Of a stretch of DNA of 64,000 bases, positions 16,246 through 58,896 are shown in pieces. Both the position numbers and the translations under genes were made by a program. Source of the DNA: a virus (lineage: Duplodnaviria > Caudoviricetes); the IMG/VR virus record IMGVR_UViG_2588253903_000005, positions 1-64,000 of that record; one strand, written 5' to 3'. How positions within the stretch are numbered: position 1 is the first letter of the stretch; each line of letters opens with the position of its first letter. Under the pieces are notes generated by a model. It was not told the origin of the DNA and did no database searches. It saw only the letters and a program-made list of their open reading frames with translations.

Positions 16246-16311
16246 TCCAACCCCGGCATTTCTGCCGGACGCTCCCAACTTAATGGACTTTTTAGAGCCG
16301 TTGGGACGGCT
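16246..16311 (-). ncRNA. Pistol self-cleaving ribozyme
   Basis: AGCCG-UCCCAA-CGGCU-CUAAAAAG-UCCA-UUAA-GUUGGG-AGCG-UCCGGC-AGAAAU-GCCGGG-G^U-UGGA; P1, pseudoknot, P2, P3 and the GU site are all in canonical order. Confidence 0.92.
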
Positions 16312-22765: not shown

Positions 22766-22930
22766 ATGAAAGTAAGAGTAACAATTATGACAGAGAACGA
22801 TAAGCCCATTTCTGTTTTGGGTGAAAATCCAGAAGAAAAAATAAAGATAGGATGGGAACTTGTGCTTGCTTTATTAAATGCTCAAAGCGAAGATAGGGCA
22901 ACGCTTGAAAGAGTAGAAATTGTTGAATAA
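22766..22930 (+). CDS. Small hypothetical protein
   Basis: Coupled ORF. Confidence 0.5.
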   Translation: MKVRVTIMTENDKPISVLGENPEEKIKIGWELVLALLNAQSEDRATLERVEIVE

Positions 22931-22935
22931 ATTTT

Positions 22936-23007
22936 AGGGATATCGCCAAACGGTAAGGCACAGGACTTTGACTGCTGTATTTCCGGGTTCGAATCCCGGT
23001 AGCCCAG
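22936..23007 (+). tRNA. tRNA-Gln(UUG), with stem mismatches
   Basis: CT-TTG-AC loop, GGTTCGAATCC T-arm; mismatches in acceptor and anticodon stems; no encoded CCA. Confidence 0.75.
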
Positions 23008-23055
23008 TTCAGCCGAAAGGCTATATAAAAATTAAAGTTTAGGAGGGATTTGTCT

Positions 23056-23697
23056 ATGACGACTGAAACCATGACCGTGCATAAGGCTCTGGCAGAATTA
23101 AAGCTGCTTGACATCCGGATTGAGAAAGCAATCGCAGAAGGTGTTTACTGCGTTGCGAACAAACATTCAAACGATAAGATAGGCGGCGTTCCGCTTGATG
23201 ATTACATTAAAATCATGCAGGGCGGATATGACAAGGCAACTGACTTTATCAACCGTCAAACGGCAATAAAACGAGCAGTCACACTTTCCAATGCTGTAAC
23301 CAAAGTCGAAATTTCTGGCGTGGAATATACAAGAGCAGAAGCCATTTGGATGAAAAATCACGGAATGGAATTTTGCAAAACACTTATGAATGCTATGCGG
23401 AGACAATATGATAAGGCTCAAATGCAAATCAATCTGGAAAACGGAAAAGACCTTGAACAGAGGGCAGAGCAGTATGTAACCGCAATCTACGGGCAGAAAG
23501 AAGGAAAGACAAATACTGCTGACATCGAAAAGGTCAAGGCAGACTTTTTAAAATCCAACCAGTACGAACTGGTTGACCCGCTCCACGTCCTTGACAAGAT
23601 TGAAGATTTGGAGAAGAAAATCAATGATTTCATGGCAGAAGTTGACAGCTCATTATCGGTCAGCAACGCCTTAACCGAAATCACGATTGAATATTAA
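23056..23697 (+). CDS. Coiled-coil protein, probable partner of the downstream ncRNA
   Basis: TVHKALAELKLLDIRI; SNA(V/L)T motif twice; VDPL; from memory loosely like DIP1984/DUF6847 proteins (unverified). Confidence 0.85.
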   Translation: MTTETMTVHKALAELKLLDIRIEKAIAEGVYCVANKHSNDKIGGVPLDDYIKIMQGGYDKATDFINRQTAIKRAVTLSNAVTKVEISGVEYTRAEAIWMKNHGMEFCKTLMNAMRRQYDKAQMQINLENGKDLEQRAEQYVTAIYGQKEGKTNTADIEKVKADFLKSNQYELVDPLHVLDKIEDLEKKINDFMAEVDSSLSVSNALTEITIEY

Positions 23698-23715
23698 AAA
23701 TTAAATGAATTTTAT

Positions 23716-24107
23716 CCACTGTTTACCGAAAACCCCAAACTACAATTCATACGTCTTTTGCAGATACAGACATATGTAAAACAATAAAGAAATCTGCAAA
23801 CTTCAATGGACGAAGATAATATGAATTGGTCTTGAAAACCAAATTTGCATAAACAATGTGTCGGCGGTTCGATTCCGTCCAAGTCTTCGGACTTGTAGCT
23901 CAGTCGGGAGAGCGATTGTAAAAACAAAACGCACTGTAAAGATTAAAGAGTAAAGCTCAAATCTTAAAGCTGAAAGGTCAAAGTTTATTTTCTTCAAAGT
24001 TGAAAGAGCAAAGGTAAAAGACAAAAGTTTTACAAAATCCTTGGGAAATGTTTATTCGGGCTAATTGTAATTGCTGATGGGTTTAACACAAGGCTGGTAA
24101 ATGGTGG
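23716..24107 (+). ncRNA. ~390-nt structured ncRNA with permuted tRNA module, anticodon-arm mimic and heptamer array
   Basis: 13-bp 5'/3' helix (23716-23728 with 24095-24107), nested AAACCC/GGGTTT and TACAATT/AATTGTA helices; no coding ORF on +. Confidence 0.85.
23937..24029 (+). repeat. 12 tandem heptamers, consensus NAAAGNN (7 + 5, split by a 9-nt U-rich linker)
   Basis: TAAAGAT TAAAGAG TAAAGCT CAAATCT TAAAGCT GAAAGGT CAAAGTT [TATTTTCTT] CAAAGTT GAAAGAG CAAAGGT AAAAGAC AAAAGTT. Confidence 0.9.
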
Positions 24108-24157
24108 GTTATATGAATTATCGGCGGCAGCTTGTTGGTCTCGTTGCCGCCGGTTTT

Positions 24158-24249
24158 GCAGATATAACCCTAACTGGTAAGGGAACGGTTTGCTAAACCG
24201 TCAGTAACCGTCAAATGACGGCGCGTAGGTTCAAGTCCTACTATCTGCG
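24158..24249 (+). tRNA. tRNA-Ser(GCU)
   Basis: GCAGATA/TATCTGC acceptor, ACGGT-TTGCTAA-ACCGT, long variable arm, T-arm. Confidence 0.92.
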
Positions 24250-24319
24250 TTATGGGGATGGTAAAGTCTATGGGTTGATTCCAAAAATAAACAAACTTTA
24301 CAAAAAGCATTCCCATTAT

Positions 24320-24411
24320 GCCGACGTACCCAAACGGTTATAAGGGCGCAGTCTTGAAAACTGATGTGCCATGGAGAACATGGTCTGTGGGTTCAAATCC
24401 TACCGTCGGCG
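24320..24411 (+). tRNA. tRNA-Ser(UGA)
   Basis: GCCGACG/CGTCGGC acceptor, CTTGAAA loop, long variable arm, GGTTCAAATCC. Confidence 0.92.
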
Positions 24412-24756
24412 TTTAGTGTCGAACATTCGTACCATTTGGCACTCCTTTCACCCCGTAGCGGAATGCTGTTAAGAGCCTTCGCAAGGCTTGCGGGGATTCG
24501 TCAAGGAAAAGACATTAAAACCCGCTTGCCAGAGCGTATAAGTGGCGATACTAAAGCCCGGCTACTGCTTGAGGGCAATATAAAAAAGAGCAGCGTGTAG
24601 ATTGGCGGTAAGACGATGCGAATCTCAAATAACCGCATTCTGGATGATGCCCACGTCATTGTATAATTGGTGATGCATACTAGTTTGGACAGAATCCGAT
24701 TGTCAGTAAAGACATGCAAAATCCTATGCAGTCCTCATAGACATAAATTGGACGGT

Positions 24757-24938
24757 GTTGCGTGGCGGAATAGATAAACGCTAAAGTGTAGCTCTTATAG
24801 ATTGGTTGGCATTACAAGGTGTAGCCGTAAAAGAACAATTACTGTATAACAAGTCATCTCCGAGCAGAGGGCGAATGAGCCACGGAAAGGCAGAAATGCA
24901 AACTCCAATCATGTGTGGTGCAAATCCACACCGCAACA
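24757..24938 (+). ncRNA. tRNA-like RNA with ~130-nt insert in the anticodon arm
   Basis: GTTGCG/CGCAAC acceptor, TGGCGGAATAGATAAACGC D-arm, TGTGG-TGCAAAT-CCACA T-arm, GATTGG/CCAATC closing the insert. Confidence 0.7.
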
Positions 24939-25065
24939 TTTAGTTAGGCCATTCCTAGCTAGACAGGAGTAAATCGGTCACTGCCCTGTCGAATCAAAAA
25001 TAACGCTGGCAGGAACATTCTTTCTGCCAGATAAACCGCAAAATGAAGTCAGGAGGGATTTTGTC

Positions 25066-25431
25066 ATGCACTCTCTTTTAAGAAAAACAAAATCTGGGAG
25101 CAACGGACTTGTATATCCTTTTCGTCAAGAGAGAAAGGTTTTACATGAAAAATCTATTATAAACGGCAAATTATATGACACAGAAAAAGCCGAGTTTTTA
25201 TGCCCATTTAAAGACGGAAGGATTCTACTAAAGACAAAGAAAGGGAATTACTTTTCTTGCGTGCAAGATATAAGGTCGGTCAACAAAGAAAAAATGGATG
25301 AAATCATTGAAGCTGTAACAATATCACATTACGACTTGCGGGAAGAAACCAAAGAAGAAGTAAAGGGGTATATGGGTATTCACGAATTGGATTTGTATAT
25401 AAAGATGTTTGGAGAGGCCGAGGAGGCGTAA
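25066..25431 (+). CDS. Hypothetical protein, paralog of 21994-22335
   Basis: KLYDTEKAE...KKGNYFSC. Confidence 0.65.
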   Translation: MHSLLRKTKSGSNGLVYPFRQERKVLHEKSIINGKLYDTEKAEFLCPFKDGRILLKTKKGNYFSCVQDIRSVNKEKMDEIIEAVTISHYDLREETKEEVKGYMGIHELDLYIKMFGEAEEA

Positions 25432-25701
25432 CGATCTAAAATCAATTTTAAGCGATTTTAACCCAACGCCTTAAATTTCCTCAATGAAACATAAAAGAGG
25501 GCGATTTGAGGCAAATAGGAGCGTTAGAGAGGTATTTCTGCTAAAAGCATACACCGTTGTTCAAGTCAACGGGGCAGATTTGGCGGTAACTTCGGAAATC
25601 GCTACATAAAATCCAACATGAGCGGACAAAAGTGAGAACAAAAACGCTTGAGGTATAAAAGTGAGTATTGCGTATTCTCACAAAGCAGTATTCGCTTTTA
25701 A

Positions 25702-25773
25702 GGCGATATAGCAAAACGGTTAAGGCGGCAGTCTGCAAAACTGCTATTATCAGTTCGATTCTGATTATCGCCT
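25702..25773 (+). tRNA. tRNA-Cys(GCA)
   Basis: GGCGATA/TATCGCC acceptor, GCAGT-CTGCAAA-ACTGC, T-arm; one D-stem mismatch. Confidence 0.9.
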
Positions 25774-25775
25774 TT

Positions 25776-25848
25776 AACAACGGGATAGCCCGACGGGGCG
25801 AAAAGCAAAACCGTGATTGCCTGTCCGTTGTTTCAACTAATATCACGG
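25776..25848 (+). ncRNA. Candidate pseudoknotted RNA
   Basis: Long stem 25776-25788/25821-25832; loop CCGTGAT complementary to ATCACGG at 25842. Confidence 0.45.
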
Positions 25849-25867
25849 GATTATCAACATGTAGGTA

Positions 25868-26470
25868 ATGAAAATGGATAAATTGTATCAATCATACGTT
25901 TTGACAGACGATAAAGAACCGTTTAGGTTTGAATTGAAAGAAATTACAGTGAAATCAATTTCTGAAAATGGGACAATAGAAACAAAATATCCATGTTTTT
26001 ATGGTGTAATGAAATGTACAAACCACATAAATGGTTCGGGAGAAATTAAAACAGATAAGGAATATTCTTCTGGACATAGCTATGCATATTATTCGATAAG
26101 CTATGAAAAATGTATGGAGTATCTTGCGAATAAAAGACAGGAACTATTTCAAAAATATCAAAAAATGTCGGAAGAAGTAAGCACATTTTATAAAAAGATA
26201 ATGGAAAGTGAAATAAAGAATCACGTAAATAACGCGACTGTTAAAAAATACTCTTTGTGGATGGAGGGATATTCTGCAACCGGACAAAGTTCAACAGCGG
26301 AATTTTTAGGAGTATTTGACGGAGTTTCGTTTAATGACGCTTGCGATAATTGGTCTAAAACTATTAAACAACCAGAATATTATAAGCCCGGAACCGATGA
26401 ACACAGACCGAGTTATTGGGCGTGTAAAATTTTTGACAATGAAATAGACGCAAGAAAATCATTTGGTTAA
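25868..26470 (+). CDS. Hypothetical protein
   Basis: 200 aa ORF. Confidence 0.7.
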   Translation: MKMDKLYQSYVLTDDKEPFRFELKEITVKSISENGTIETKYPCFYGVMKCTNHINGSGEIKTDKEYSSGHSYAYYSISYEKCMEYLANKRQELFQKYQKMSEEVSTFYKKIMESEIKNHVNNATVKKYSLWMEGYSATGQSSTAEFLGVFDGVSFNDACDNWSKTIKQPEYYKPGTDEHRPSYWACKIFDNEIDARKSFG

Positions 26471-26487: not shown

Positions 26488-26538
26488 CAATAGGCTAGGG
26501 TAGCTCCCAAAAAGCGTCCTCCAACGCCTGCCTATTGT
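26488..26538 (+). promoter_or_regulatory. Three-way-junction leader upstream of the replication initiator
   Basis: CAATAGGC/GCCTATTG, GGG-TAGCT-CCC and GCGT-CCTCCA-ACGC helices. Confidence 0.45.
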
Positions 26539-26583
26539 TTTTATAAATTTGGAGGATTAGAAAAATGGATTGGAGGTCATTTT

Positions 26584-33398: not shown

Positions 33399-34601
33399 AT
33401 GAGTGATTTAAAAATATTTACAGAAAACATAGAACCGCAGGCATTAAATCAGATTTACACGCTGATTAAGCAACCGGCATTTGCGGATTGCAAAGTGCGT
33501 ATCATGCCTGACGTACACGCCGGAGCTGGATGTGTTATCGGTTTTACTGCTGATTTGGGAGATAAGGTAATTCCAAACATCGTCGGAGTGGATATTGGCT
33601 GCGGCATGGAAACTGTAGAACTTGGCAACACAGACATAGACCTTGCAAAACTCGACGAGGTAATCAGAAAATATGTTCCGAATGGCAGAAATGTGCATGA
33701 AACAGAAGATAACTTTTCGGAAATCATCATCAATCAGCTTTATTGCGAAGACCGCCTAAAAAACGTGGATTGGTTGAAAAGAAGCTGCGGTACGCTTGGC
33801 GGAGGAAATCATTTTTGCGAAGTGGACATTGACGATGACGGAAATAAATACCTTGTCATTCATTCGGGAAGTCGGAACATTGGAAAGCAGGTTGCGGAAA
33901 TTTATCAGCAGATGGCGATTGACGATTTAAGCGGAGCGAACAGCCTTGAAGAAGAAACAAAGAAACTGATTGAAGATTACAAACGGACAGGCAGACACAA
34001 GGATATTCAGAGAGGGATTGCGGAGTTAAAACGGAAATTTCAGCCGAAAATTAGTGTGCCAAAAGAATTATCCTATCTGACAGGCGAACACAGGGAAATG
34101 TATCTGCACGACATGAAGTTGTGTCAGAAATTCGCAAGTGAAAATAGATACAGGATTGCAAAAGAAATATCTTATGGCATGGGCTGGGATATAGATAGAT
34201 TTTCAAATGGATTTGAAACAATCCACAACTACATTGAGCATGACACAAACATCGTCCGCAAGGGCGCAATATCGGCGAAAGAGGGCGAAACAGTCCTAAT
34301 TCCTATCAATATGCGTGACGGCTGTATTATCGGCAGGGGAAAAGGTAATGCAGACTGGAATTATTCAGCGCCGCATGGGGCAGGACGGATAATGAGCCGT
34401 AGCAAAGCAAAAGAAACGGTATCGCTGGAAGAATTTGAACAGTCCATGCAAGGAATTTATACAACATCTGTTAATCGGTCAACGATTGATGAAAGCCCTA
34501 TGGCATACAAGCCGATTGAGGAAATTGTAGCGAATATACAAGATACGGTTGAAATCATGAAGATTATCAAGCCGATTTATAATTTTAAGGCGAGTGAGTG
34601 A
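33399..34601 (+). CDS. rtcB: RNA ligase RtcB
   Basis: MPDVHAG, VGVDIGCG, GTLGGGNHF, HSGSR, HN, RKGA, HGAGR, DESPMAYK. Confidence 0.97.
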   Translation: MSDLKIFTENIEPQALNQIYTLIKQPAFADCKVRIMPDVHAGAGCVIGFTADLGDKVIPNIVGVDIGCGMETVELGNTDIDLAKLDEVIRKYVPNGRNVHETEDNFSEIIINQLYCEDRLKNVDWLKRSCGTLGGGNHFCEVDIDDDGNKYLVIHSGSRNIGKQVAEIYQQMAIDDLSGANSLEEETKKLIEDYKRTGRHKDIQRGIAELKRKFQPKISVPKELSYLTGEHREMYLHDMKLCQKFASENRYRIAKEISYGMGWDIDRFSNGFETIHNYIEHDTNIVRKGAISAKEGETVLIPINMRDGCIIGRGKGNADWNYSAPHGAGRIMSRSKAKETVSLEEFEQSMQGIYTTSVNRSTIDESPMAYKPIEEIVANIQDTVEIMKIIKPIYNFKASE

Positions 34602-58680: not shown

Positions 58681-58896
58681 TAGACAGGAGGATTCTTTCC
58701 ATACCTTTAATGAAAATTGGTGTATGGAATTTAGTTTATTATAAAGAAAAATACAGAAGAGCTGGCATACCTAACTATGAAGAAAAGCTTGTTAATGTTG
58801 GTTACATCTGGGGATAGGCTGACGAGCCGAAAAGTACAAGCCTTAGTACCTGCCCCGGTTTGACATAAGGCAGTTTGCGGAAAGGCGGTAAAGAGC

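Follow-up and report, generated by a model that had tools for sequence, protein, structure and literature searches.

The RNAs nearest in genomic habit to the element described here are ROOL and GOLLD, which, like it, are large, pseudoknotted, prophage-borne, located beside or around tRNA genes and without an assigned function (PMC5737381). The element lies in a 64,000-nucleotide (nt) stretch of viral DNA (Duplodnaviria; Caudoviricetes), positions 1 to 64,000 of IMG/VR record IMGVR_UViG_2588253903_000005; this whole stretch, hereafter the window, belongs to a 75.6-kb provirus of a gut bacterium. It consists of a gene for a 213-aa, mostly helical protein and, beginning 18 nt past the stop codon of that gene, an RNA of 394 nt with paired ends. 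This cassette is probably an undescribed protein-RNA particle. Further points of comparison are found among better-characterized systems. TRAP reads 11 (G/U)AG repeats, and HutP reads two sets of three NAG units with 4-nt spacing, giving a 7-nt period. Autoregulation by molecular mimicry is known from ribosomal proteins, threonyl-tRNA synthetase (ThrRS) and the phage T4 proteins RegA and gp32. Salmonella harbors an rsr-yrlA-rtcBA locus, in which the genes for the ring protein Ro (Rsr), the Y RNA YrlA and RtcB are neighbors. The coordinates of all features are collected in Table 1.

The existence of the RNA can be regarded as virtually certain. A secondary structure comprising P1, P2, P3, P4, P5 and both stems (a and b) of an H-type pseudoknot was written down from the window and scored on an alignment of 36 non-redundant RNAs (alignment A2), to which all counts over 36 RNAs given below refer. 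In this structure, 89.2% of the cells were paired, compared to 36–43% when the partners were slid by 1–3 columns, and changes on both sides were present in 44 of the 48 pairs. The covariation score was 0.66 (0.10–0.15 in the slid controls), and none of 500 shuffles matched the observed covariation. When mutual information was scanned blindly, the pairs of the scored structure ranked top, and a further helix of 4 bp, P6, was added; it is stacked under P4 (columns 585-588/622-625). P2 and P3 are each crossed by P4, P5 and P6, and the two stems of the H-type pseudoknot cross one another; the structure thus features three pseudoknot-type crossings. P1 is also present in the minimum-free-energy fold of the RNA (z −3.1). 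Conserved G-U pairs occur in P1 (e.g. in 28 of the 36 RNAs at columns 7/639); because they would turn into A-C mismatches if the RNA were read from the opposite strand, the RNA strand is fixed as plus.

The 3′ strands of P3 and P2 lie inside the 3′ knot domain (24039-24093), the hairpin loop and tail of which pair back to the 5′ end of the RNA. The analysis shows a compact core made of a 13-bp closing helix, a knotted 5′ domain and a knotted 3′ domain, and this core holds out two single-stranded arrays and one variable arm. An earlier annotation of the window, made from its letters only (the original prediction), had proposed the 13-bp end helix, which is confirmed by compensatory changes at every one of its pairs in the 36 homologs. 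It had also proposed two nested helices; these are real as P2 and P3, but the crossings by P4, P5 and P6, and with them the pseudoknotted nature of the core, had been missed.

Table 1. Positions of the cassette features in the window
Feature	Positions	Strand	Details	Evidence
Partner-protein gene, 213 aa, PHROG 1491	23056..23697	+	ATG at 23056, stop TAA at 23695-23697	
Leader heptamer ATTAAAG	23031..23037	+	followed by TTT and ribosome-binding site AGGAGGG (23041-23047)	sequence
Whole RNA, 394 nt	23715..24108	+	P1 5′ strand to P1 3′ strand	
RAGATH-27 (RF03100) part	23715..23798	+	5′ strands of P1, P2 and P3 plus H-type pseudoknot	92.1 bits
P1 5′ strand	23715..23727	+	pairs with 24096-24108, 13 bp	98.9% paired, 13/13 pairs changed on both sides
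Junction GAAAAC	23728..23733	+	conserved; G14, A16 and A17 invariant	invariant columns of alignment
P2 5′ strand	23730..23735	+	pairs with 24079-24084; core 3 bp covary	covariation
P3 5′ strand	23741..23747	+	pairs with 24063-24069, the P5 hairpin loop (pseudoknot)	88.5% paired, 7/7 covarying
H-type pseudoknot	23748..23797	+	stem a 23748-55/23769-76, stem b 23760-65/23792-97	covariation
Anticodon-arm mimic, tRNA-Ser UGA loop	23826..23842	+	TTGGT-CTTGAAA-ACCAA	sequence
Permuted tRNA-like module	23853..23919	+	ACAAT/ATTGT closing stem	sub-threshold YrlA match; covariation in L208 and L001
Heptamer array 1	23935..23983	+	seven N-U-Y-A-A-A-G units	alignment of 36 RNAs
U-rich spacer	23984..23992	+	between the arrays	alignment of 36 RNAs
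Heptamer array 2	23993..24027	+	five units	alignment of 36 RNAs
3′ knot domain	24039..24093	+	P4 24039-43/24089-93, P6 24049-52/24085-88, P5 24057-59/24074-76	
P1 3′ strand	24096..24108	+		covariation

The association of gene and RNA was examined in 85 IMG/VR loci, the proteins of which have 44–66% identity. In 84 of these, a 13-nt strand followed by GAAAAY was located 0–283 nt from the stop codon, with a complementary 13-mer 315–470 nt downstream. At the apparent exception (L182), the RNA is positioned ca. 900 nt downstream of the gene; counting the window, gene and RNA are linked in 86 of 86 loci. The RNA also stands behind the gene in two bacterial genomes and in Dulem virus 39, T5_ev219, Bacillus phage JBP901, Vibrio phage River4, Klebsiella phage VLCpiM5a, Lactococcus phage P1048 and Erwinia phage Simmy50. 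A strict end-pairing script returned no 11-bp closing helix in Pseudomonas phage PE09 or in JBP901, but the helix of JBP901 is visible by eye. A degenerate scan of viral contigs for the 5′ motif yielded chance matches mostly and was not used. Gene and RNA very probably constitute a functional pair. The proposal that a large structured RNA is tied to the helical-protein gene thus held at all 86 loci. Of the parts that the original prediction had wanted to see conserved downstream of the homologs, the end-pairing and the heptamers are kept, but the tRNA module is missing in most.

A portion of the RNA had been catalogued previously. The first 84 nt match the 86-position RAGATH-27 model, an orphan candidate small-RNA motif, from end to end (model positions 1-86; 92.1 bits versus a gathering score of 76.1), and the gathering score is also exceeded at loci L001, L002 and L208. 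No more than the 5′ fifth of the RNA falls within RAGATH-27, in which a single hairpin is annotated (stem b only); the conserved 5′ stretch that is “unpaired” in the model corresponds to the 5′ strands of P1, P2, P3 and stem a. The model also misses the distant members in T5-like, Vibrio, Klebsiella, Erwinia, Lactococcus and Bacillus phages. Literature searches found no paper mentioning RAGATH-27 and nothing on a function, the partner protein, the arrays, the 3′ domain or the full RNA; the main text of Weinberg 2017 contains no RAGATH entry, and nothing on the cassette RNA was found in the literature on T5 transcriptomes and tRNA-mimic decoys. Two abundant RNAs encoded beside tRNAs in phage K, lnc001 and lnc002 (PMC9241854), were considered and rejected, as they have neither the end-pairing nor the array signature. 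The RNA beyond its first 84 nt is uncatalogued. The assertion that no described system has this combination of parts accordingly stands for the combination, but not for the 5′ 84 nt, which were already in Rfam.

The 12-unit heptamer array of the original prediction was recovered as two blocks (Table 1). In all 36 RNAs the arrays are gapless, a U-rich spacer separating the first seven units from the other five; in some, a hairpin is inserted ahead of the last unit. The pooled unit reads N, U (65%), Y (87%), A (98%), A (97%), A (76%), G (67%). No covarying pairing partner for the array columns was found in the mutual-information scan of the 36 RNAs. Given this result and the gapless register, the arrays are taken to be conserved as sequence, in register and single-stranded, and they carry the signature of putative repeated recognition sites. 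The resemblance to the targets of TRAP and HutP (short single-stranded units, a fixed period, two blocks) suggests that one protein subunit would be bound per unit. TRAP and HutP, however, are beta-rich rings, and their repeats serve in mRNA leaders to control attenuation. The cassette has its repeats in a free-standing, knotted RNA, and their putative binder is a bundle of helices.

A copy of the heptamer also precedes the protein gene itself, directly upstream of the ribosome-binding site (Table 1). Among the homologous genes, 29 of 51 distinct leaders had T[CT]AAAG starting between −40 and −17, with a peak at −25 to −22; the same motif occurred in 9 of 152 leaders of other open reading frames (ORFs) at the same loci and in 2.8 of 51 leaders after composition-preserving shuffling. 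Several homolog leaders featured two to four units in 7-nt register. In T5_ev219, where the units are YAAAC-like, the leader and the phage’s own array have CTCAAACTTC in common, and in Simmy50 the heptamer TATAAAG is found at −27 of the protein gene. The leader copy points to a binder shared by leader and arrays and to putative autoregulation, and it fits a heptamer-binding protein. As in the known cases of autoregulation by mimicry, the unit of a structural RNA would be copied at the ribosome-binding site of its binder’s mRNA; the difference is that in the cassette this is deduced from sequence statistics alone. That the protein reads the heptamers is judged to be somewhat more probable than the contrary.

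The leader copy also bears on the idea that the RNA is an RNA-only machine or cage of the ROOL/GOLLD type, active alone or as a homo-oligomer, with the neighboring protein a separate entity and the A-rich arrays engaged in RNA-RNA tertiary contacts. Both the idea and the role that it gives to the arrays are considered rather improbable. The heptamer copy in the protein’s leader would be left unexplained, and the linkage of gene and RNA in 86 of 86 loci, which extends down to ca. 30% protein identity, speaks against it. There is also no Rfam match to ROOL or GOLLD, either at the gathering score in the whole window or at E values up to 5 in 22900-25900. The cassette RNA differs from both in being smaller, in being strictly linked to a dedicated protein gene and in its phased single-stranded heptamer arrays. 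What speaks for an RNA-only machine is its complex, pseudoknotted core, the acidity of the partner protein and a shared genomic habit: PMC5737381 and PMC12286853 place ROOL and GOLLD in prophages, beside tRNAs and sometimes with tRNAs embedded.

The partner protein belongs to a family of 2258 representatives at 50% identity, and a tblastn search located it in 742 phage records; a Lachnospiraceae metagenome-assembled genome contains a 96%-identical copy. The predicted 213-aa helical protein was borne out by the ORF and by an AlphaFold2 (AF2) model, which is mostly helical (predicted local distance difference test, pLDDT, 96.4). No Pfam match was found for the window protein, and an NCBIfam search gave nothing meaningful. 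PHROG 1491 was matched over the full length (E 3e-50; residues 3-212 on profile positions 2-210 of 211). The label of this group, “tail fiber protein”, has been carried over into many GenBank entries; it is doubtful, because the protein is a helical bundle without a fiber-like fold and its gene is located in the early/tRNA region. In Dulem virus 39 (PP511791.1, L123:4020-4477), three small coding sequences are annotated as “hypothetical protein” over the RNA region. Both these coding sequences and the tail-fiber label look like annotation artifacts.

The best structural neighbors of the AF2 model were uncharacterized phage proteins (template-modeling (TM) score 0.7–0.87). A sequence search of the PDB returned no match, and Foldseek gave nothing below E 0.001 against the PDB, with a match at E 0.016. 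The best solved neighbor was 3kdq_A, a Corynebacterium protein with no assigned function (Z 10.8, 151 of 152 residues, root-mean-square deviation 7.7); the next best had a Z of 7.1. DUF6847 (PF20935) was matched weakly by 4 of 60 family members (best E 0.019) and was not matched by the window protein. These weak signals agree with the 3kdq fold match, and DIP1984/DUF6847 received an Atlas lead score of 0.86; the partner protein is likely a remote relative of DIP1984/DUF6847. Nothing relevant was found in the literature on DIP1984. In the family alignment (A1), two near-invariant S-N-A motifs were observed at residues 78-80 and 203-205, with N79 and N204 invariant. Because each copy is situated at the end of a long helix, directly ahead of a short strand, the pair points to an internally duplicated protein that may have two equivalent sites.

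The variable arm of the window RNA contains two tRNA-like pieces, a Ser(UGA) anticodon arm with the loop CTTGAAA and a circularly permuted tRNA, both of which had been recognized in the original prediction (Table 1). The former and the anticodon arm of the phage’s own tRNA-Ser(UGA) have 11 nt in common (GTCTTGAAAAC). In the permuted module, the T arm (23863-79) is followed by an acceptor stem closed by TTCG (23880-95) and by the D arm (23898-913). The T stem is kept at L208 and L001 by a compensatory change of C-G to U-A, and the closing stem appears there as CAGAA/TTCTG. An alternative pairing, GGACG/CGTCC, was rejected, since the C-G to U-A change at L208 keeps the T stem and breaks the alternative. 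A linear, tRNA-Sec-like reading of 23811-23889 was also rejected (24.6 bits versus a cut-off of 47). No standard tRNA cloverleaf was called in the RNA with RF00005 or ARAGORN, the module being permuted and its acceptor closed by TTCG.

Inserts derived from tRNAs recur in the variable arms of distant phages. When an anticodon-arm-like hairpin was defined by a stem of at least 5 bp and a loop of the form Y-U-NNN-R-N, 23 were found in the variable arms of the 36 RNAs versus 2.8 ± 1.7 in shuffles; these inserts are not random. Ser anticodons (UGA, GCU, GGA) account for 9 of the 19 hairpins other than T loops, and two anticodon-arm-like hairpins stand in tandem at L162. The RNA of Escherichia phage T5_ev219, a relative of T5 (NC_134263.1, L204:2151-2501), features the hairpin CAGC-CTTTTAA-GCTG, a mimic of the tRNA-Lys(UUU) loop. 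The Erwinia jumbo phage Simmy50 (NC_041974.1, L214:1465-1905) has the same cassette at ca. 30% protein identity, and its RNA contains the same kind of permuted tRNA module (YrlA, 44.5 bits) together with a CTTGAAA loop. At L185 (753-1225), whole tRNAs, Ile(GAU) and Gln(UUG), are located inside the variable arm, as in GOLLD.

The permuted module is the basis for comparison to bacterial Y RNAs, and the original prediction had entertained a Y-RNA-like tether. In YrlA, too, a T arm, a closed acceptor stem and a D arm are found inside an RNA with paired ends. The Rfam search that met RAGATH-27 above threshold placed YrlA (RF02553) well below it: the match at 23855-23917 reached 36.3 bits (E 1.3e-5) versus a gathering score of 69, and it covers model positions 23-85 only, i.e. 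the tRNA-like domain. The TROVE domain of Ro (PF05731) had no match in the 75.6-kb provirus record or in either of two host genomes (G001 and G002), which may be incomplete; control genomes were positive. That the RNA is a YrlA-type Y RNA tethering a Ro/Rsr ring to a partner is therefore very improbable, its paired ends, its YrlA-like module and the phage-encoded RtcB notwithstanding. RtcB is 9 kb away in another gene block, and the module, an optional insert, is missing in most family members. tmRNA and its protein SmpB are similar to the cassette in several respects (an RNA of ca. 360 nt with paired ends, several pseudoknots, tRNA-like parts and an internal stretch that is single-stranded, served by a small protein of its own). 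The terminal helix of the cassette RNA, however, is not an acceptor stem with a T arm, and a 7-nt period provides no reading frame; tmRNA was found neither by ARAGORN nor by Rfam over the window.

Two observations connect the arrays to the inserts. The unit triplets UCA/UUA, CAA/UAA, AAA/AAG and AGC are codons of most mimic anticodons (UGA, UAA, UUU, GCU), and UUGAA in the window loop (23831-23837) is complementary to UUCAA in unit 8. This match may be a coincidence or a docking contact. Taken further, it would make the RNA a rack or sponge for tRNAs, in which the unit triplets pair with the anticodon loops of tRNAs or their mimics and the protein has a stabilizing function. Most of the mimic anticodons (UGA, GCU, UUU, UAA) are indeed complementary to unit-consensus triplets, and tRNAs for Gln(UUG), Leu(UAA), Ser and Lys abound in the clusters that harbor the cassette, but the complementarity amounts to only 3–5 bp, and phage tRNA sets are A/U-biased in any case. 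Many members have no mimic, loops and arrays do not covary, and the leader copy is better explained as a protein operator. Such docking is considered improbable.

As the original prediction had stated, the cassette is embedded among real tRNA genes. Four flank it (Gln, Ser(GCU), Ser(UGA) and Cys; identified with ARAGORN and the tRNA model), of which tRNA-Gln (22935-23008) lies immediately upstream of the protein gene, and tRNA-Ser(GCU), at 24157, is the next tRNA after the RNA, followed by tRNA-Ser(UGA) and tRNA-Cys. No plus-strand ORF of at least 40 aa was found from 23698 to tRNA-Ser(GCU). Same-strand tRNAs flank the cassette in 31 of the 36 loci, and a tRNA often begins 7–17 nt past the end of the RNA (P1 3′ strand); a close-following tRNA is also present in Dulem virus 39 and in the Klebsiella phage. 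A promoter/terminator scan of the window found neither a promoter nor a terminator match adjoining the RNA.

This arrangement would accommodate a cis-acting operon element, i.e. a 3′ untranslated region or processing platform that stabilizes the upstream mRNA or controls read-through into, or maturation of, the downstream tRNAs. The RNA starts 6–53 nt past the stop codon in most loci, a promoter of its own was not detected, and the spacing to the next tRNA is short. Nevertheless, such an element would need far less than some 400 nt containing three pseudoknots and 12 phased units, one or two ORFs intervene between gene and RNA in 10 loci, and the downstream genes are variable; this explanation is hence regarded as unlikely. 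Residence in a tRNA operon, a size like that of RNase P, a pseudoknotted core with invariant junction nucleotides and a small protein partner would also suit a ribozyme or the RNA component of a tRNA-processing, tRNA-repair or tRNA-modification enzyme, with the protein as a cofactor. No known ribozyme model was matched, however, 84 nt of repetitive single strand would be unusual in a catalytic core, and there is no evidence of a substrate. Catalysis is accordingly given a very small probability.

The explanation favored here is that the 213-aa helical protein and the 394-nt RNA make up a two-part phage cassette whose products form a protein-RNA particle; the chances of its being correct are put at about even. 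It is favored mainly because the array unit is copied at the ribosome-binding site of the protein’s own gene. Since tRNAs are adjacent and no promoter or terminator adjoins the RNA, a common transcript would cover the cassette and the tRNA genes around it, and tRNA-processing enzymes would release the RNA from this transcript. The heptamers would then be read by the protein, either oligomeric or present in many copies, and a stable protein-RNA particle would result. Free protein would bind the leader copy and thereby throttle its own translation. In the window phage, the variable arm would display the tRNA-Ser anticodon arm and a tRNA “elbow”; in other phages, other tRNA pieces would be displayed. 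The most likely use of the arm would be to engage a tRNA-binding host factor, e.g. as bait for an anticodon nuclease.

PrrC and RloC are nucleases that target tRNA-Lys. Defense nucleases of E. coli cut tRNA-Lys, among them PARIS AriB, and T5 counters with a resistant tRNA-Lys (PMC11455837); these facts render a bait role plausible but unproven. That the variable arm serves as tRNA-mimic bait against tRNA-targeting defense is given a low probability. The same applies to a two-role particle, in which the heptamer-bound protein and the knotted core would be a stable chassis, and the arm a swappable display of tRNA pieces that baits or blocks nucleases; this, too, is considered unlikely.

Several points weigh against the favored explanation. 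The partner protein has no known RNA-binding domain in Pfam or NCBIfam, and it is acidic (isoelectric point 5.36; family median 5.6). Leader and arrays alike could be recognized by a host factor with affinity for A/U-rich leaders. The transcription, ends and abundance of the RNA are predicted from the DNA. As to the arm, the closest phage record, Dulem virus 39 (78% protein identity, 88% RNA-core identity), has a variable arm of ca. 36 nt with neither the anticodon-arm mimic nor the permuted tRNA, the T loop is absent from most homologs, and the mimic anticodons are mixed (Ser, Ile, Lys, Thr, Leu). Because it is missing in Dulem virus 39 and most homologs, the mimic is an accessory insert. Any decoy role is likewise accessory, and the display of a tRNA mimic was not upheld as a conserved function.

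Other features of the provirus and of the region around the cassette were noted. The gene set includes an integrase, a BRO/antirepressor, a serine recombinase, a replication initiator, RtcB, a terminase and a portal protein; the predicted RtcB gene was verified at 33399-34601 (Pfam E 8e-60). Between the 3′ end of the RNA and tRNA-Ser(GCU), a G+C-rich hairpin (GGCGGCA...TGCCGCC, followed by GGTTTTG; 24119-24157, plus strand) was observed, which may signal processing or act as a weak terminator. Dulem virus 39, whose tRNA starts ca. 10 nt after P1, lacks this hairpin. A stretch of ca. 650 nt following tRNA-Ser(UGA) (24413-25065, plus strand), with no ORF longer than 78 aa on either strand and no Rfam match, could contain another non-coding element. 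Three int-alpA RNA motifs (RF02996; gathering score 35.8) are located on the plus strand at 25778-25848, 26488-26555 and 58807-58871 (48.6, 45.1 and 42.9 bits); one is directly after tRNA-Cys, and L001 and L002 each have an int-alpA motif as well. A Pistol self-cleaving ribozyme is encoded on the minus strand at 16246-16311 (54.4 bits versus a gathering score of 34.5).

The cassette is a conserved, unannotated resident of tRNA clusters in hundreds of phages, including relatives of T5 that are tractable at the bench. In the databases, its protein is mislabeled “tail fiber protein”, and its RNA is left blank or hidden under spurious small ORFs. No counterpart has been described for an RNA of ca. 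400 nt that combines three pseudoknots, twelve phased single-stranded units and a partner protein of its own. Elucidating the cassette would add a new protein-RNA particle to the RNA biology of bacteria and phages, and it would explain the orphan motif RAGATH-27. Phage tRNA clusters are now regarded as counter-defense loci, as exemplified by phage tRNAs that resist anticodon nucleases (PMC11455837), and the recurrent tRNA mimics are a concrete, testable link to tRNA-targeting immunity. The two-role particle, if true, would represent a new class of RNA-based anti-defense hidden in phage tRNA clusters.

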